Assembly (NCBI GenBank): GCA_020724845.1
Contig: DYGE01000001.1
Location: 58,218-122,217 of the forward strand
Length of the DNA: 64,000 nucleotides
Direction: 5' to 3'
Origin: Candidatus Paceibacter sp.
GTDB lineage: Bacteria; Patescibacteriota; Minisyncoccia; UBA6257; 02-FULL-45-10c
A model generated the notes under the pieces. The model searched no databases, was not told where the DNA came from, and worked only from the letters and a program-made list of their open reading frames with translations. A program made the position numbers and the translations under genes. The first letter of the stretch is position 1. Each line of letters opens with the position of its first letter. Positions 3,354 through 43,279 of this stretch are shown in pieces.

Positions 3354-4319
3354 CTATTTAATTAGTTTTTTAAACTCTTCTACCATTGGCACTTGCTCCG
3401 CCTCAACTCCGTATTCTTTGGCAGTATAATAAGCCGTCCAGTCCGCCAAAAGCAAGGAGGAAAAAATCTTATGGAAATGGTTTTTGCCATTTACGATTAC
3501 AACTTCGGACGGCAGACGCCTTTCGCGGTACAATCTTTCGGTGACGTTCATCCGTTTGGTTATCTTAGGCTGGTCGGCAACATCTTTTAGAAAAACGAAG
3601 TAAAAGTACTTGGAAAGCGCGCCAGTGGAATCTTTAACGTCAAAGCCGGTCATTTCGTTGTGGTTGAGTTCCGGGAAATAATTGATGAAAGCCGGTATCT
3701 TTCCGGTTTCATTGAATTTTATTTTCCAATTATAAGCTATTGGCATATTTCTTTCGGATGAATAAATTACCGGCACATGCCCTTTCAGTTTTCTGGCGAG
3801 GGCTTTGCCGATCCTTTCGGCTTCGTAAGATTTCATTAGTTTCGCCAGTTCGGTCAGCTCACTGCTGAATTTATTTTCTTTCATTACCGCCGCCAGTGAT
3901 TTTATTGAATATCCCAAGGCGGATCTCGGCTGGATTCCGGTAGCCGGCATTTGCACGTGCGGGACCTTGCTCTTCTTAGCGAGATCTAAGAGTTTCCCGC
4001 CGGTAGAAACAGCCGCTAAGGGATACTTCATTTTTGAGGCGAGCTTGAAGCCCTCAATAACTTCTTCGGTATTGCCCGAATACGAACTGGCGATAATTAA
4101 ACTTTGTTTTAAAACTGCGGGGCTAAGTTTCGGCAAGCCATAATTGCGGTGAGACATGACATCAAAATAGGGGTCGCGGATTTTGAATAGGTCCGCGGCC
4201 AGGTTGGAGCCGCCCATCCCAAGGACGATGAATTTCTTGAATTTTTTCAGCTTCCCGGCATTTTCAATAACCGGCTTGTATTCAAACTGTTTAGGAAAAT
4301 TTTTTATTGCTTCGTGCAT
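3354..4319 (-). CDS. Bifunctional phosphoglucose/phosphomannose isomerase (SIS-domain PGI/PMI family)
   Basis: GMGGSNLAADL SIS motif; the ~320-aa size fits archaeal-type bifunctional PGI/PMI. Confidence 0.75.
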   Translation of the reverse strand: MHEAIKNFPKQFEYKPVIENAGKLKKFKKFIVLGMGGSNLAADLFKIRDPYFDVMSHRNYGLPKLSPAVLKQSLIIASSYSGNTEEVIEGFKLASKMKYPLAAVSTGGKLLDLAKKSKVPHVQMPATGIQPRSALGYSIKSLAAVMKENKFSSELTELAKLMKSYEAERIGKALARKLKGHVPVIYSSERNMPIAYNWKIKFNETGKIPAFINYFPELNHNEMTGFDVKDSTGALSKYFYFVFLKDVADQPKITKRMNVTERLYRERRLPSEVVIVNGKNHFHKIFSSLLLADWTAYYTAKEYGVEAEQVPMVEEFKKLIK

Positions 4320-15870: not shown

Positions 15871-15918
15871 AAAAAAGAAGCCCCACACCGAAGCGCAAAG
15901 CTTCTTTGTGCGGGGCTA
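15871..15918 (-). terminator. Two-tier hairpin terminator immediately after the 32-codon small ORF
   Basis: The gccccacac/gtgcggggc stem with an inner gaagc/gcttc stem, followed by a T-run on the minus strand. Confidence 0.55.
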
Positions 15919-16014
15919 TGCGAGCAGGAAGGCGGCGATGACCGCAGCGGTTATGACATACGGATAGAAAGGCAGGTACAGATCGTAATACAGCTTATAG
16001 AGCAGGTTGTTCAT
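15916..16014 (-). CDS. Small ORF (32 aa): Tyr-rich N-terminus then hydrophobic tail; GC-rich
   Basis: GGAGGAAGT Shine-Dalgarno 0 nt upstream of ATG; its own TTGACA-17-TAAAAT promoter at 16062..16090 (minus); terminator directly after the stop. Sequence MNNLLYKLYYDLYLPFYPYVITAAVIAAFLLA. Below the 60-codon cutoff of the ORF track. Confidence 0.4.
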   Translation of the reverse strand: MNNLLYKLYYDLYLPFYPYVITAAVIAAFLLA

Positions 16015-16095
16015 ACTTCCTCCTTTACAGATTGGAATGCGCAGCTTTTCAGCTTGTATGCATTTTATCATATTTATGAGTTTATGTCAAGTGAA

Positions 16096-18215: not shown

Positions 18216-18294
18216 CCGTTTCCCGACCCCTTCCCTATCAAATCTCTCAACCAAAAATTTTAAAAATAGAATAGACTTCTATTTTTTAAATTTG

Positions 18295-18381
18295 CGGAGG
18301 GGGAGAGATTCGAACTCTCGATGCCCTTTCGGACATGCCGCCTTTCCAAGGCGGTGCACTAGACCACTATGCGACCCCTCC
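18295..18381 (-). tRNA. tRNA-Ser (anticodon GGA), type II with long variable arm
   Basis: Manual fold: 7-bp acceptor GGAGGGG/CCCCTCC, anticodon stem CCGCC/GGCGG with loop TTGGAAA, long variable arm, T-loop GTTCGAATC. Confidence 0.8.
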
Positions 18382-25555: not shown

Positions 25556-25674
25556 GGCGAGCTCCTATGCGGTTTTCGAGGAAGAATAACTTTATCTTAT
25601 AGTCTTTCTGGTATTATTTCAATGCGGGGTAGCTCTCTCTTGGTCATTCGGGCTTCGCGGTGGGGACAAAGTGT

Positions 25675-25820
25675 CATAACCAGAAAGTATCCTCTTACCG
25701 GCACCAGCGTTCGCTGATTCCTGCGATCAGCGCCGCTTACGTCTCATCCTGATTTTCGCAAGCGAACCGAGCAAATCAGGATTCCGTCAGTTGCCGCACA
25801 GAGGATACTTTCTGGTTATG
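25675..25820. mobile_element. 146-bp element bounded by 21-bp perfect inverted repeats (cataaccagaaagtatcctct ... agaggatactttctggttatg) with two internal hairpins: MITE-like or structured RNA
   Basis: Read directly. Internal stems cgctgat/atcagcg and atcctgattt/aaatcaggat. Sits in a 300-bp intergenic gap. Confidence 0.5.
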
Positions 25821-25856
25821 CTTATCAGGTGGAGGTGTTATCCAAAAGAGAGCGCG

Positions 25857-26549
25857 CTACTCCAGGGTTCGCTTCAGGTATTCTTGTATTCTTTTAGTGT
25901 CAGGATGAAATTCTAATTCTTCGTCACTGATGATGATTCTGGGTTTGTATACGCTTGCCCGATTCGCAGCGATTTCTATTTTTTTAATTTGGATTTTCTT
26001 TAGTATTTTTTCCAGCCAGTCTCCAAGTGTCTCTTCTAAAAGCCATTCCAGCATTTTTTTTATTCGGCCGTCTTTTTTATACTTGTGCCGAGGATTTTCC
26101 TGATAAAGCCGGGCTTCGCCGATCCAATCTTCATTAGCGCGATAAAAGCGCTGAATTAGTGTAGTGTTGCCTAAAATTGGGATTACAGAGAGATATAGCT
26201 TTTTCCAATACTCATTATATGGAGGCGACAGCCGGTAAGATCGCGGCGAAACAAAGTGGCTGAAACACAGTTTGTCTTTAAAGTTGTCGGTTGTCGGTTG
26301 TCGGTTGTTAGCCGGATGTTTCGCCCACCAACCGAGCGGCTTGAAGATTAGAAAGCAGAAAAACCGCACCGTAAAAATCCTTTCCTCCCTGGCACCGACG
26401 ATTACATCAAAATCTGAATCTTCGCGCATATTTCCGGTTGCCAGCGATCCGGCAGCAAAGACAAAATCAATGAAAGGGATGTATTGAAGCGGCCAGCAGC
26501 GTTTTAGGAATTTATGCCACTTTTGTTCATGTAGGTTTTGTCTTGACAT
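25857..26549 (-). CDS. Nucleotidyltransferase-fold protein (Pol-beta-like NTase)
   Basis: GSLATGNMREDSDFDVIV matches the GS...D.D NTase signature. 230 aa with an internal in-frame triplicated heptamer. Confidence 0.65.
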   Translation of the reverse strand: MSRQNLHEQKWHKFLKRCWPLQYIPFIDFVFAAGSLATGNMREDSDFDVIVGAREERIFTVRFFCFLIFKPLGWWAKHPANNRQPTTDNFKDKLCFSHFVSPRSYRLSPPYNEYWKKLYLSVIPILGNTTLIQRFYRANEDWIGEARLYQENPRHKYKKDGRIKKMLEWLLEETLGDWLEKILKKIQIKKIEIAANRASVYKPRIIISDEELEFHPDTKRIQEYLKRTLE

Positions 26550-26688
26550 ATCCAGCTAGTATTGGTATCATGTGCTCGAGGTTAACAACGCTTGGTCATG
26601 TACCTTGCTTGGGTGCCCCATGTAAAGTGGGCGCTGTCCTCTCCGGTCCCCCCTGCACAAGCGCGCTTGTGCAGGGGGCATTTTTATT
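26543..26688 (+). ncRNA. Candidate small RNA (~110 nt): promoter TTGACA-17-TATCAT, then intrinsic terminator
   Basis: -35 TTGACA at 26543-26548, 17-bp spacer, -10 TATCAT at 26566-26571. Hairpin ccccctgcacaagc/gcttgtgcaggggg at 26649-26680 followed by TTTTTATT. No plus-strand ORF or downstream plus-strand gene. Confidence 0.4.
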
Positions 26689-27730
26689 CTTCTTGTAATA
26701 TTTCGGGGCGCCCTAAGAGTTCCGGCTCTATACCTACGGCCTGGTCGGTAATCTTTAGCACGTCTTTATCAATTTTGCCGAGTTCCTTATAGGCGCTGTT
26801 GTACATATTTACTGAAGTTCCCAGATGCGTTCCCAATTTTTGCATATATGATTCGTAGCTGGACAGATGTTTGCCAAGCGCTTCAACTCTCTTTCGGATT
26901 TCTTTTGCCGATTCTTCAATCTGCAAAGCTTTAAGGCCTTGAAGCACGGTCTGCAAATAAGCGAGGAAGGAAGTCGGAGAAACGATGATGACATGCCTAT
27001 CCTTAAAGGCGTATTGGATAAGATCCTGCGTATTTGCTTTAACCGCGCCTACTTTGTTGATCAGCAGATCGTAGTAAATCGCTTCGGCGGGAATAAACAT
27101 AAAAGCGAATTCCATCGTCCCCTCCTCCGGCTTTACATATTTAGCGGTTTCATCGATGCGGTTTTTTAAATCCTGCCGGAAAGCTTTTTCCAGCTCTTCT
27201 CGAGTTTCTTGGTCGCGCGCCTCTAAAATTCGGTTGTAATTTTCCAAACTGAATTTGGAGTCAATAGGGATTATTTTGTCCTGAACGAAAATAACCGCAT
27301 CCACGATAGTCCCATCCTTGAATGGATATTGCATCTGATATCGCCCCGGGGGAAGGACATTTTTAAGGAGCGTTTCCAGATAATATTCACCCAGCACTCC
27401 GCGCTGTTTCGGATTTTTGAGGATATCCTGCAAGTTCTGCAGCTGGTCGGCAAAGCTGACGACTTGCTTGTTGGTTTCATCCAATTTGGCGAGGCGTTCG
27501 GTAACATCCCGGATAATCCGGGCGCTTTCTGAAAATTGCCTCTGCATTGAACGGGTTGACTCGCCTATTTTGGAATCCAAAGTATTCCTAATTTCGTGAA
27601 GCTGGCTTTGGAGCATGACCAGAGACTGCTCATCTCTTCTTGTCTCCGGTTTTTGGCTGCGCAAAGCCCAAAATACAGTGGCGAATCCGAGCACTACAAC
27701 TATTAAAATTAATATTGAAAAAATATCCAC
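26684..27730 (-). CDS. rmuC: DNA recombination protein RmuC
   Basis: N-terminal TM, long coiled coil and RmuC core; GTG start. Confidence 0.85.
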   Translation of the reverse strand: MDIFSILILIVVVLGFATVFWALRSQKPETRRDEQSLVMLQSQLHEIRNTLDSKIGESTRSMQRQFSESARIIRDVTERLAKLDETNKQVVSFADQLQNLQDILKNPKQRGVLGEYYLETLLKNVLPPGRYQMQYPFKDGTIVDAVIFVQDKIIPIDSKFSLENYNRILEARDQETREELEKAFRQDLKNRIDETAKYVKPEEGTMEFAFMFIPAEAIYYDLLINKVGAVKANTQDLIQYAFKDRHVIIVSPTSFLAYLQTVLQGLKALQIEESAKEIRKRVEALGKHLSSYESYMQKLGTHLGTSVNMYNSAYKELGKIDKDVLKITDQAVGIEPELLGRPEILQEE

Positions 27731-27885: not shown

Positions 27886-27912
27886 AAAAAAACCGCATGT
27901 AGAATGCGGCTA
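27886..27912 (-). terminator. Intrinsic terminator (ccgcatgtagaatgcgg + 7-T run on minus)
   Basis: Directly after the stop of the 54-aa ORF. Confidence 0.65.
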
Positions 27913-27916
27913 GGCT

Positions 27917-28081
27917 TTAAGCCCCGAAAAATCTCATCAGCAGCTTGGTCAATTCAACGGCGATATCTCTTATAACGTCAATCAATGCCGCATGAACAAG
28001 ATGCAAGATTGCGACTACTGGAAGAAGAAGGATTGCTAAAAGCACAATCTGCGCCCAACCGTTCTTTGATTCCATTATCAT
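27917..28081 (-). CDS. Small membrane protein (54 aa)
   Basis: Below the 60-codon ORF-track cutoff. MIMESKNGWAQIVLLAILLLPVVAILHLVHAALIDVIRDIAVELTKLLMRFFGA. Sits 41 nt downstream of the peptidase gene and is followed by a terminator. Confidence 0.4.
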   Translation of the reverse strand: MIMESKNGWAQIVLLAILLLPVVAILHLVHAALIDVIRDIAVELTKLLMRFFGA

Positions 28082-33701: not shown

Positions 33702-34886
33702 TTAGTCATCAAGCTTGATAAGGGTGTTCGTTGGTAGATGTATCACCGCCGTCAACACCATCCATCCGAATGCCGCCCAGAAACTCATAGCTTGCAGTAT
33801 GCATACCGCAATGTACATTCCCGGCAAACCGCACCAAAACGTCCTTGACACGGCGCTGCCGCTTGCCCCTTTTTGCAAGAAAGTAAACAGAATGGCCAGC
33901 ACTAGTACTCGGTAGGACACGCTAGCAACGAAAATTCCCAGGAAATAATACACTCCGTAAAGAAGCCAGATTGCTAACGGGATGCCGATTAGATAGCCAA
34001 GCGGCCCTGGCTCATGCTCCGGATTTTTCCCGGCATTTCCTCGGTCGTAAAGCAGCGCTCCAAAAATTACACTCAGACATGCGGGTATGAATATAGAAAG
34101 CTTGAGATAATCCCAGAATCCCCAACCCGGCAAAACAAATGTCGGATTTTCCACAAACCACAGCATAGCGTCAGAAAGCGGCTTGGTCATCAGCGCGTAG
34201 CTGACTAAGGCGCATAGGCCGTCATAGCCTATGATCAAACCGTCAATCGCGTTGAATCTTTGGATTTTATGCATTGAAAATATCACCGCGTTTGAAGCAA
34301 AGTGCGCTAGAACAGAGGCCAGTAGACCGTACTTCACAAAGATGTAGGTAAAAAAGATTCCAGCCACGAATTGCGGGAGCACTCGCAGAATATTGCGATC
34401 CTCTTCTCTTTGGAAATTTTTCAGATGGACCAGTGCCCAAAAGCTGTTCCCTATCAGAAATAACAGATAAAACGCTATTGTCCCGGATATAAAGGGAATC
34501 TTAACTAATAAACCTAGGAAAAACCATCGCGCCAGAATTTCTTCCAAAAGAACCATAATGAAGAAAGTGCGGAAGTGATTTCCTTCCTGCATACTCCTAA
34601 AGAGTTCATTAATAGAATGCTTACCGCTCTGGCCAAGTATCGCGCCTTGCGCTAGTCCGGCGAAAATCGTGCACGGCAATTCTATCACCACCGTGGCGAG
34701 AATAACCAAAAACATCGTTAAGAAATTTTCCTGGCCGACAGCGATTTCGCTTACTTTGCCGGCCAGGAGCAGAATCAAGTCACTGCCTACTAGTCCGAAC
34801 AGCTGCGATTTCCAAGCTATCAGCCAAAGCAGACAAAACGTTCCGAGCATAGAAAATGCCCCAAGGCGGCCTTCTTTGCTTTCCAC
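33702..34886 (-). CDS. CPBP (CAAX protease / Abi) family intramembrane metalloprotease
   Basis: EEILARWF (EExxxR), FWALVHL (FxxxH) and HFASNAV (HxxxN) motifs within a polytopic protein. Confidence 0.8.
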   Translation of the reverse strand: MESKEGRLGAFSMLGTFCLLWLIAWKSQLFGLVGSDLILLLAGKVSEIAVGQENFLTMFLVILATVVIELPCTIFAGLAQGAILGQSGKHSINELFRSMQEGNHFRTFFIMVLLEEILARWFFLGLLVKIPFISGTIAFYLLFLIGNSFWALVHLKNFQREEDRNILRVLPQFVAGIFFTYIFVKYGLLASVLAHFASNAVIFSMHKIQRFNAIDGLIIGYDGLCALVSYALMTKPLSDAMLWFVENPTFVLPGWGFWDYLKLSIFIPACLSVIFGALLYDRGNAGKNPEHEPGPLGYLIGIPLAIWLLYGVYYFLGIFVASVSYRVLVLAILFTFLQKGASGSAVSRTFWCGLPGMYIAVCILQAMSFWAAFGWMVLTAVIHLPTNTLIKLDD

Positions 34887-39514: not shown

Positions 39515-40000
39515 ATGCCCGACAGGCCCGTTAAGAAAGTTTCAGAGTCCTCCCTGGATAACCAGCAGTATATGATTTTCCCGGATGACTTAAATCCAAA
39601 CGGTACGGTATTCGGCGGGACAGTTATGGCAGAAGGCGATAAAATTGCCGCGTTGGTGGCTCGCCGGCATAGCGAACAGAACTGCGTCACTGCCTGCGTG
39701 GATTCCTGCCGATTCCTAGCTCCAGGCAGGCAAGGAGAAGTATTGGTTTTCAACGCTTCCGTGAATCGGGTCTGGAATTCCTCAATGGAAATCGGCGTCA
39801 AAGTTTTTTCAGAAAACTACAAGACTGGAGAGAAGCGGCACATAGTATCGGCCTACTACACTTTCGTTCCTATTAACGAGCAAGAGCGGCCGGTGCCGGT
39901 AAAATATGGTCTGCAACCGGAAACCGAAGATGCGAAGCGCCGTTACCGCCAAGCTGAAAGCCGCCGACAAAGGCGCCTGGCTGAAAGAGAGCAAAATTAA
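39515..40000 (+). CDS. Acyl-CoA thioesterase (hotdog fold)
   Basis: YciA-like: PDDLNPNGTVFGG motif. Confidence 0.8.
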   Translation: MPDRPVKKVSESSLDNQQYMIFPDDLNPNGTVFGGTVMAEGDKIAALVARRHSEQNCVTACVDSCRFLAPGRQGEVLVFNASVNRVWNSSMEIGVKVFSENYKTGEKRHIVSAYYTFVPINEQERPVPVKYGLQPETEDAKRRYRQAESRRQRRLAEREQN

Positions 40001-41650: not shown

Positions 41651-41718
41651 TTGACAAATTGTACAATCTATGCTATAGTTCTCTGGTAAAGTAGCCGTCC
41701 CCTGTGAGGGGCGTTTTT
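41651..41718 (+). promoter_or_regulatory. Promoter TTGACA-17-TATAGT followed ~15 nt later by an intrinsic terminator hairpin (cgtcccctgtgaggggcg + TTTTT) in the 3D-domain gene leader
   Basis: -35 at 41651-41656, -10 at 41674-41679, hairpin at 41696-41713 then T-run; the ATG of the next gene is at 41731. Confidence 0.5.
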
Positions 41719-41730
41719 ATTAGCAAATTA

Positions 41731-42186
41731 ATGCAAAATATCAAAAAACAACTCTTAAAAGGACTCAACTATACCTTAGCCCTGGGAATCGCGGCTAACT
41801 TTGGTTCGCTCGCCCTTCCTGAAATGCCGAGTATTTTAGCCGAGCCGGCATTTTTTGAATCAGTGGCAACCACCTCTCTGGAAGCCCATTCGGCGACTAC
41901 TAGGGCGCTGGAAGTAACTTTAACGGGTTATTCTTCTACGCCGGATCAGACAGATGATACGCCCTTTATCGCGGCGTCCGGCAAGCACGTTTACGACGGA
42001 ATGATTGCGGCTAATTTCCTGCCTTTCGGAACCAAAGTGCAAATACCGGAACATTTCGGCGATAAGATTTTTGTGGTGGATGACAGGATGAATCGCCGAT
42101 ATTCCGACCGGGTAGATGTCTGGTTCCCGGATAGAAATTCCGCCATCAAATTTGGCATAAAAAAATCAACAATTATAATTCTTTAG
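41731..42186 (+). CDS. 3D-domain protein (MltA-like DPBB fold; cell-wall-associated)
   Basis: Signal/TM, then TGYSSTPDQTDDTPFIAASG ... VVDDRMNRRYSDRVDVWF with three conserved Asp. Confidence 0.7.
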   Translation: MQNIKKQLLKGLNYTLALGIAANFGSLALPEMPSILAEPAFFESVATTSLEAHSATTRALEVTLTGYSSTPDQTDDTPFIAASGKHVYDGMIAANFLPFGTKVQIPEHFGDKIFVVDDRMNRRYSDRVDVWFPDRNSAIKFGIKKSTIIIL

Positions 42187-42239: not shown

Positions 42240-42506
42240 TTATTCTTTTATATCTGACGCGTTAAGGTAGCCGGAGCTAAAATTATATTTTAAATTTTCA
42301 AGAAATTTTCTCCCGTCTTTGAAAAACAGCCGCCCTCGCCTCCCGGGAACTTCTCCGCTCAAATAATCAAGAATCCCTTCCGACTTTAAATTAGCGGTTA
42401 AATTTTCATCTCCCCCGCAAACAATTTCTCCATTTGCTAACTCGCACTTGGCAATCACCTCCTGCGAGCCGTCATTATTCAATTTGTAGAATTCTACGTA
42501 TGGCAT
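42240..42506 (-). CDS. Small hypothetical protein (88 aa) translationally coupled to the upstream kinase-like gene
   Basis: ATG 2 nt after the kinase stop codon; the TTG-extended version would overlap by 16 nt. Confidence 0.45.
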   Translation of the reverse strand: MPYVEFYKLNNDGSQEVIAKCELANGEIVCGGDENLTANLKSEGILDYLSGEVPGRRGRLFFKDGRKFLENLKYNFSSGYLNASDIKE

Positions 42507-42508
42507 TG

Positions 42509-43279
42509 TTATCTCGGCGCCCACATTAAGATATCTAATGACGATTCAGGGATAGCGCCGTATTGATTTATAACAGATCGAATCGCTTTTAACCGCGCGA
42601 AAACCTGGTTAACCGCTCCTCTTTCTAAAAGCTCCGTGAGTAATTCGTCTAACAGGTCTCGCATCTTCTGATCCAGCGCTAACCCGTTTATCTTCTCTTT
42701 CAGATCTTCTGGGACAGGTAGGTCAAGCACGCCTTTATATTCAAATTCCCTTGGAACATAGTCCCAGACAAAACTATGCCCGTGATCAATCGCGTAAATT
42801 TGGTTGCCTTTAAGCAGGTAGTTATTAAAACCCCGATCCGTATTGCCGATTATGTAGTCAAATATGCAAAGCTTCAGTATTTCTTCTTTCGGTATATTTT
42901 CGCGACCTTTGCGGCCAAGCTGCATAGGCAGCAAAGAGTTTTCAACAAATTGCTGTAAGCTTCCAAGCTTTCCGGATATTGACCTTATAATAGTCGGCGG
43001 CACGAAATTGAAACCAAGAAAGCGATCTACCAGATAAGCCGCCCGCTCGTTGCCAATGAATTTAATCCTGTCTCCGTAGTCCTGGTGAGTGTGCGGCTTA
43101 AATACCCCTAGGCCATCGTTCTTCAATTTCACTAATTCCGCGTCGCCGGTAAATCCGCCAAGCAATTCAACGGTTCTTTCTACTTCTCTGCTTTGCAAAA
43201 TTTCTTCCTCCGGAGACGCGAATTGAGTCGGGGTTTCCCGATGATATGACTCTTTTTTTGAAGCAGTTTCAAATGCCAT
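42509..43279 (-). CDS. PI3K/PI4K-like kinase-fold protein
   Basis: Catalytic-loop-like IGNTDRGFNNYLL and activation-loop-like AIDHGHSF (compare PI3K GDRHxxN / IDFGH); upstream Lys region VFKPHT. Confidence 0.55.
   Translation of the reverse strand: MAFETASKKESYHRETPTQFASPEEEILQSREVERTVELLGGFTGDAELVKLKNDGLGVFKPHTHQDYGDRIKFIGNERAAYLVDRFLGFNFVPPTIIRSISGKLGSLQQFVENSLLPMQLGRKGRENIPKEEILKLCIFDYIIGNTDRGFNNYLLKGNQIYAIDHGHSFVWDYVPREFEYKGVLDLPVPEDLKEKINGLALDQKMRDLLDELLTELLERGAVNQVFARLKAIRSVINQYGAIPESSLDILMWAPR

Follow-up and report, generated by a model that had tools for sequence, protein, structure and literature searches.

Between two co-directional genes of Candidatus Paceibacter sp., a promoter and a terminator lie on the opposite strand with no open reading frame (ORF) between them: is this a gene for a small RNA (sRNA) and, if so, what could its product do? 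The locus belongs to a stretch of 64,000 nt of contig DYGE01000001.1 (hereafter the window). Its two flanking genes, both on the minus strand, are rmuC, which comes first in the pair (26684-27730; Pfam RmuC, E = 1e-57), and, downstream of it, a gene encoding a nucleotidyltransferase (NTase) of the Pol-beta superfamily (25857-26549), which has a weak Shine-Dalgarno (SD) sequence. A previous sequence-only reading had proposed here a non-coding plus-strand transcript that could act antisense on its neighbours or otherwise regulate them. The present analysis indicates that this unit is very probably transcribed. Tentatively, we favour a real and autonomous ORF-less RNA whose action, if there is any, would be in cis, with the unit working as an antisense or convergent element against read-through from rmuC to the NTase gene. 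The proposed regulatory role is plausible but unproven; a transcribed gene remnant is about as likely a reading.

The plus-strand unit between rmuC and the NTase gene

The promoter of the unit consists of a TTGACA -35 hexamer (26543-26548, plus strand) and a TATCAT -10 hexamer (26566-26571) separated by 17 bp, and it scores 11/12 against the sigma-70 consensus. The sequence-only reading had rightly called it near-consensus and had overlooked its extended -10 (TGgTATCAT, 26563-26571, with the TG at 26563-26564). As also claimed, the -35 hexamer overlaps the start codon of the NTase gene on the opposite strand (26547-26549; gene opening ATG-TCA-AGA), with which it shares 2 nt. Judging from the position of the -10, transcription would start at G26578 or A26579, and the predicted RNA would run from about 26578 to about 26686 on the plus strand, that is 105-110 nt, in line with the size of about 110 nt given previously. 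It comprises a G+C-rich 5′ body of about 71 nt (26578-26648), a terminator hairpin (26649-26678) and a T run, CATTTTTATT (26679-26688), which does contain the rmuC stop codon (26684-26686, minus strand), as had been noticed. The hairpin is a perfect 30-nt palindrome with nine G-C pairs; its perfection and G+C-richness had been correctly described, but the stem has 13 bp, with a 4-nt loop, and not 14 bp. Read on the minus strand, AAUAAAAAUG precedes this hairpin and GACCGGAGAGG follows it, the T run being present on the plus strand only. Since the minus side carries GACCGGAGAGG and no U tract, the hairpin is expected to terminate plus-strand transcription only. The unit thus has a predicted sigma-70-type promoter and a Rho-independent terminator of its own, both on the plus strand, as a stand-alone sRNA gene should, and its description as a self-contained unit is credible.

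First-order Markov simulations of the window gave an expectation of 0.7 promoter sites scoring at least 11/12, compared to seven observed, a tenfold enrichment. Five of the six sites other than that of the unit sit 18-66 nt upstream of real gene starts (groES, the cold-shock protein gene csp, a 32-aa ORF preceded by AAGGAGG, and the starts at 34886 and 41704). From these positions, the genome clearly makes use of canonical promoters, and its 11/12 sites are mostly genuine. The remaining one (42152-42179, plus strand), which is the sole such site without a gene behind it apart from that of the unit, lies within the 3′ end of the ORF 41704-42186 and faces the minus-strand gene 42240-42524; it may be spurious or drive an antisense transcript. 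In a census of the terminators of the window, nearly all strong hairpins followed by a T run were found at most about 15 nt from the end of a gene on the same strand. The hairpin of the unit has the highest number of G-C pairs in this census and is the lone strong plus-strand terminator with neither a plus-strand gene nor an adjacent minus-strand gene end to explain it. The earlier statement that no plus-strand gene follows agrees with the gene map (longest ORFs, 90 aa, which small genes can escape), where the next plus-strand start is at 39515. Furthermore, the G+C content of the unit (0.53-0.56, compared to 0.24-0.39 in the neighbouring intergenic DNA) exceeds both the coding and the intergenic levels of the window.

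No usable plus-strand ORF was detected within 26572-26688, as expected for an sRNA gene and in agreement with the previous claim that no ORF with a ribosome-binding site (RBS) is present. The only ATG preceded by an SD sequence (26620) is immediately followed by a TAA stop codon; the ATG at 26598 has no SD sequence and its frame has no stop codon ahead of the terminator, and the remaining plus-strand frames, also devoid of SD sequences, run through the terminator. The SD-like GGGTG (26611-26615), the 4 nt that follow and the ATG-TAA (26611-26625 as a whole) may be the vestige of an ORF start; the predicted fold places the ATG-TAA in a hairpin loop. Likewise, 26572-26688 does not carry the RBS and hydrophobic-helix ORF of about 50-65 aa that characterize a small membrane-protein cassette. 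A type I toxin-antitoxin locus was rejected, as the unit has no toxin ORF and PADLOC gave no match for the NTase.

The full predicted RNA folds better than shuffled sequences (z = -3.1), a signal that comes entirely from the terminator; the weak and non-significant fold of the 5′ body shows two small hairpins closed by GAGG/CCUC. Using Rfam 15 at gathering thresholds, the only match in the whole window was a tRNA-Ser (18294-18381). On both strands of 26000-27200, cmscan at E <= 10 returned just chance matches of 15-18 bits to the terminator hairpin, and ARAGORN identified no tRNA or tmRNA at the unit. A scan of six related loci, including the relatives' cassettes described below, revealed no Rfam family match. 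In the absence of any family match, signal recognition particle (SRP) RNA, 6S RNA, riboswitch and leader identities were rejected for the unit, the first two having already been dismissed in the sequence-only reading.

A frame kept in related loci and its changing content

The loci compared include 80 genomic RmuC relatives, 33 metagenomic NTase relatives and the contigs of nine of the closest NTase proteins (about 125 in total). The organism is an uncultured bacterium of the Parcubacteria group, within the Candidate Phyla Radiation (CPR), and its nearest RmuC match (85%) is found in a metagenome-assembled genome of Candidatus Harrisonbacteria (locus L001). Among these related loci, no homologue of the body of the unit was found by blastn (word size 7), nhmmer or local alignment; neither did viral contigs (exact pattern) or phage genomes (distant blastn) give any match. 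The sole other copy of the unit is carried by a contig from a second sample and is 100% identical, without any single-nucleotide polymorphism. Conservation of the body was thus not found, in a comparison that has little power, the nearest other genome showing 66% NTase identity. The conservation of promoter and hairpin in relatives, which the sequence-only reading had put forward as a check, is borne out: the promoter hexamers, in position and strength, and the plus-directed terminator are kept in three related loci (L001, L003 and L122), whereas the body is not conserved.

These three loci carry, backwards with respect to the two genes, a cassette framed in the same manner. In L001, the promoter TTGACA-17-TATAGT and the terminator GCCCCC...GGGGGC followed by TTCTTTTTATT enclose an ORF-less body of about 190 nt. 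In L003, the promoter TTGACA-17-TATATT is followed by AAGGAGG, by an ORF encoding a two-helix protein of 63 aa and by the terminator CCCCCTACC-GAAA-GGTAGGGGG with TTGTTTTTTATT. The cassette of L122 has the promoter TTGACA-17-TATAGT, the RBS GGGGGTGA, a two-helix ORF of 56 aa and a hairpin followed by TTTTATT. All three promoters score 11/12 with a 17-bp spacer and have their -35 over the NTase ATG-TCA-AG as in the window, and all three terminators are plus-directed with their T run over the rmuC stop codon, again as in the window. A fourth related locus, L002, has kept TTGACAT over the NTase ATG and has lost any recognisable -10 and terminator; it shows what a cassette copy free of selection would look like.

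The ORF-less body of the L001 cassette (4048-4294, minus strand of the locus) is also G+C-rich; it gave z = -1.9 and no Rfam match, and CCACCUCCCC lies just ahead of its terminator. It is a second orphan small-RNA candidate.

The NTases adjacent to a cassette (those of the window, 26541-26549, and of L001, L002, L003 and L122) all begin with M-S-(S/R/N), encoded by ATG-TCA-A, which is the reverse complement of TTGACAT. NTases without a cassette (L116, L117, L120, L124 and L128) begin with MN, MD, MG, MI or MSD. Since the NTase starts differ when the cassette is absent, TTGACA is not dictated by the NTase protein. The -35 region of the cassette rather appears to supply the start codon of the NTase gene and one or two extra residues.

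The contents of the cassettes were compared by several methods. The small proteins of L003 and L122 gave no BLASTP alignment, and tblastn searches with all the small ORFs of the cassettes gave self matches only and nothing in the unit of the window. Smith-Waterman alignments with shuffling detected TCCGG(A)TCCCCCCT, shared by the window and by the end of the L003 ORF and the foot of its terminator (p = 0.03, uncorrected), and TTCTGGGG..CCGCCATG, shared by L003 and L122 (p = 0.006, uncorrected); both weak local matches are lost on correction for ten comparisons. The likeness of the GGGTG and ATG-TAA of the window to the RBS and ATG of L122 is not statistically significant either. MAFFT, applied to the four cassettes, aligned nothing beyond the promoter and the T run. 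As far as alignments can tell, the contents of the cassettes are unrelated and the promoter-terminator frame is kept.

A bootstrapped neighbour-joining tree of RmuC plus NTase groups L122 with L128, which has no spacer (100%), L001 with L120, which carries a different and sense-oriented small ORF (100%), L003 with L015, which carries a 700-nt insertion (84%), and L116 with L117, both without spacer (100%); the placement of the genome of the window itself is unresolved. The cassette-bearing genomes are not monophyletic in this tree, and a single origin of the cassette is not demonstrable. On this topology, the distribution of the cassette needs several gains or losses, whose direction cannot be read from the tree.

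Possible roles of the unit

The unit is encoded opposite to, and between, the co-directional rmuC and NTase genes, which is the layout of a cis-antisense RNA. These two genes form a conserved pair across Parcubacteria, in most cases abutting or overlapping; they are adjacent in 58 rows of related loci and overlap or lie at most 55 nt apart in 26 of the 58; the remaining rows show insertions of about 75 to 1,760 nt at the junction, including small ORFs in either orientation. The close spacing found in the 26 rows implies ancestral co-transcription, so that the pair looks like an ancestral operon, and the rmuC/NTase junction is, on these spacings, an insertion hot spot in Parcubacteria. A candidate rmuC promoter, TCTACA-16-TAAAAT with TG, scores 9/12 (27903-27876, minus strand), and no minus-strand promoter of at least 9/12, the threshold of the scan, was detected within the 134-nt rmuC-NTase spacer. 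Since rmuC has this promoter candidate, no minus-strand terminator or spacer promoter was found and the SD sequence of the NTase gene is weak, read-through from rmuC would be the simplest route to NTase expression. Furthermore, because the hairpin of the unit has no U tract on the minus strand, transcripts of rmuC would have to cross the spacer to reach the NTase gene.

In the cis-acting model that we tentatively favour, the minus-strand RNA leaving rmuC, which would lack a canonical terminator, would cross the spacer into the NTase gene, and the strong convergent promoter located in this spacer would lead to collision with this read-through. The plus-strand RNA would show perfect complementarity to the NTase leader, stopping 29 nt short of the NTase ATG, and RNA polymerase bound at the plus promoter would cover the start region of the NTase gene. 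Collision or antisense pairing could then lower NTase expression or uncouple it from that of rmuC. The earlier suggestion of an antisense action on the neighbours is narrowed accordingly in scope: a divergent unit cannot be antisense to the coding region of the NTase gene, but it could be antisense to a minus-strand transcript crossing the spacer. With a cis-antisense role, it would make sense that nothing but the promoter and the terminator has to be retained. Indeed, since a cis-antisense RNA fits its target regardless of its sequence, kept signals with unalignable bodies are what would be expected if transcription, and not its product, is maintained. It is rather unlikely, although conceivable, that the frame with its replaceable content more generally reflects either selection on antisense transcription itself, which would restrain the NTase whatever the sequence transcribed, or a cradle in which small genes arise from non-coding transcripts of ultra-small CPR genomes or decay into them.

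Several points weigh against this cis-acting model. Transcription of the plus-strand unit and minus-strand read-through are both predicted from the DNA sequence. The 5′ 73 nt of the RNA are no better structured than shuffled sequences (z = -0.6), and the body is, among the loci searched, without homologue, so that selection on it cannot be shown. The cassette is patchy and absent from sister genomes (84-100% bootstrap), and is therefore dispensable. Two of the three relatives (L003 and L122) clearly express, to judge from their ORFs and RBSs, a small membrane protein from the same frame; the frame may thus be kept for a protein in these relatives and simply not have decayed yet in the window. 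Finally, a weak NTase promoter candidate (TTAACC-16-AATACT, 8/12) was found by eye, and transcription from such a promoter of its own could give the NTase gene a near-leaderless mRNA, which would shorten or remove the antisense overlap.

The main alternative, possible if doubtful, is a transcribed but functionless remnant, in which a small membrane-protein cassette would have lost its ORF by internal deletion and its promoter, vestigial RBS and ATG-TAA, and terminator would not have decayed yet. The identical frame is occupied in L003 (63 aa) and L122 (56 aa) by two-helix ORFs with good RBSs, the SD-like GGGTG and the ATG-TAA are still present in the unit of the window, whose body is the shortest of the four cassettes, and the outright loss of the cassette in sister genomes indicates ongoing decay or deletion. 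The weak matches between the window and L003 (p = 0.03) and between L003 and L122 (p = 0.006) point in the same direction, but these values are uncorrected and neither match survives the correction for ten comparisons. Moreover, no homology is detectable between the proteins of L003 and L122, nor of either with any part of the window, which leaves the ancestral ORF unproven as well. A G+C content of 0.53-0.56 is not what would be expected from neutral decay in this genome, and the -10 and the hairpin are near-perfect although free of coding constraint, unlike the decayed signals of L002. The opposite view, that no plus-strand RNA is made at all, appears improbable. In that case, the hairpin would serve only as a 3′ stabiliser or pause site for the mRNA of rmuC, and the promoter-like site would have arisen incidentally from the NTase start context, ATG-TCA-A, in AT-rich DNA. 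The ATG-TCA codons do partly fix TTGACAT, and among the seven 11/12 sites of the window, that at 42152 (plus strand) is located within a gene and could be spurious. However, the coding sequence imposes neither the -10, the TG nor the 17-bp spacing, and the NTase protein does not require TTGACA, as shown by the different starts of NTases without a cassette. Besides, all four cassettes have their T run on the plus side, the signals of L003 and L122 plainly serve plus-strand genes, and the chance occurrence within 134 nt of a co-oriented 11/12 promoter and of the most G-C-rich terminator is very unlikely.

If the RNA is made and functional, it could also act in trans by base pairing, its CCUCUCC (26640-26646, 5′ of the terminator) or its C-rich loop targeting distant SD regions as in RsaE/RoxS-like RNAs. 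We consider this unlikely. A stand-alone promoter and terminator, a 3′ U tail and CU- and C-rich motifs would all suit such an sRNA, and the ORF-less cassette of L001 likewise has CCACCUCCCC before its terminator. Nevertheless, the duplex energies of the RNA with 72 translation-initiation regions of the window are no better than those of shuffled RNAs (minimum, p = 0.19; mean, p = 0.35), and no extended complementarity was detected elsewhere within the 64-kb window, the only part of the genome searched; in addition, the RNA is not conserved and its CU motif is partly paired in the predicted fold. Lastly, a diverged form of a known housekeeping or regulatory RNA (SRP RNA, 6S RNA, riboswitch or similar) or a micro-peptide gene is very improbable. 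RNAs of the CPR are frequently divergent, and none of the genes for SRP RNA, 6S RNA, RNase P and tmRNA lies within the window, which leaves some room for the former. But even at E <= 10 cmscan gives nothing beyond the chance matches to the terminator hairpin, and the RNA is too short for 6S RNA and has unpaired ends, unlike SRP RNA; as for a micro-peptide, the sole ATG preceded by an SD sequence meets a stop codon at once and the other frames run through the terminator.

Related systems and neighbouring features

Classical sRNA screens in Escherichia coli searched intergenic regions without ORF for an orphan promoter and a Rho-independent terminator, and also required conservation. The evidence for the unit is of the same type, except that conservation concerns here the signals only and not the body of the RNA. 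GadY, an antisense RNA encoded between gadX and gadW, affects the abundance of the operon transcript. SraG of E. coli is an experimentally shown antisense small RNA encoded between rpsO and pnp (PMC5029454), and scr4677 of Streptomyces coelicolor is an intra-operonic antisense sRNA (PMC3896431). Like SraG, the unit is a small RNA gene that is located in the spacer of two co-directional genes and read in the opposite direction; co-transcription of the pair is established for SraG and predicted here. SraG base-pairs with the leader of the downstream gene, whose expression it lowers, and we propose the same for the unit. However, SraG is conserved in enterobacteria, whereas the unit is known from sequence only and has neither sequence nor Rfam kinship to SraG. 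With scr4677 and GadY, the unit shares the position of a spacer antisense RNA near the translation start of the downstream gene, the effect on transcript abundance being theirs; scr4677 is conserved across Streptomyces, whereas the body of the unit is not conserved and the cassette is present in a patchy set of genomes. Further parallels, at the same junction, are the cassettes of L003 and L122, whose promoters are identical in position and strength and overlap the NTase ATG in the same way, and whose terminators likewise lie over the rmuC stop codon, but which carry an AAGGAGG or GGGGGTGA RBS and complete two-helix ORFs instead of an ATG-TAA and a body of about 71 nt. Since it has no sequence or covariance-model relationship to SraG, scr4677 or GadY, the unit is not a member of these families and would best be regarded as a lineage-specific small antisense unit of transcription, intergenic in location and recognised by its orphan promoter and terminator.

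Our literature search on sRNAs in CPR bacteria (Patescibacteria) found no study of regulatory small RNAs in these bacteria. Therefore, if verified, the unit would be a useful first example of a regulatory small RNA in the CPR and would indicate that canonical sigma-70 promoters and intrinsic terminators operate in the reduced genomes of this group, together with antisense control. A kept frame with replaced content would also offer a tractable case for separating selection on transcription from selection on its product, and for following the turnover between small ORFs and non-coding RNAs. This comparative pattern is more interesting than the unit itself, whose present value, as a single locus with a body without homologue, is modest.

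Other features of the locus include the NTase itself (about 220-230 aa), for which Pfam matches only the NTase core and PADLOC gave no match; a search for a defence or toxin-antitoxin context with PADLOC and NCBIfam yielded nothing more specific than general RmuC and Pol-beta NTase signals. The NTase gene is bracketed by an imperfect repeat of 17 nt, AGCGCGCT-NNNNN-AGGG (25851-25867 and 26660-26676), one copy lying across the NTase stop codon and the other constituting the 3′ arm of the terminator hairpin. This is the sole repeat flanking the gene, its 82% match over 17 nt is probably due to chance, and a mobile-element reading was rejected.

Just upstream of rmuC, a 54-aa membrane ORF (27891-28081, minus strand) has its own terminator (27911-27891), which the rmuC promoter candidate overlaps. 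L116, L117 and L120 each carry a weak homologue of this ORF in the corresponding place (tblastn, E ~0.004-0.007). Farther away, a small gene missed by the gene map (15874-16090, minus strand) has an 11/12 promoter (TTGACA-17-TAAAAT), an AAGGAGG and a strong terminator; its product is a hydrophobic protein of 32 aa (MNNLLYKLYYDLYLPFYPYVITAAVIAAFLLA) with no Pfam match and no homologue among the fetched loci.

Just past the NTase stop codon, the intergenic region 25556-25856 contains a G+C-rich element of about 150 nt (25675-25826). A near-perfect closing stem of 21-29 bp (CATAACCAGAAAGTATCCTCT ... AGAGGATACTTTCTGGTTATG) surrounds two inner hairpins; for the minus strand, the RNA fold reaches -78.7 kcal/mol (z = -7.8), compared to z = -4.4 for the plus strand. 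Neither an Rfam match nor a second copy, in the rest of the window or in the related loci, was found for it, and the corresponding position of L001 holds only about 40 nt. This element could be a structured RNA or a foldback insertion resembling a miniature inverted-repeat transposable element (MITE). In an independent Joint Genome Institute (JGI) assembly of the same organism (L114, 2190-2400), the outer arms of the element are identical to those of the window and a scaffold gap of 10 N replaces one inner hairpin (window 25744-25783), so that the element is real but hard to assemble.

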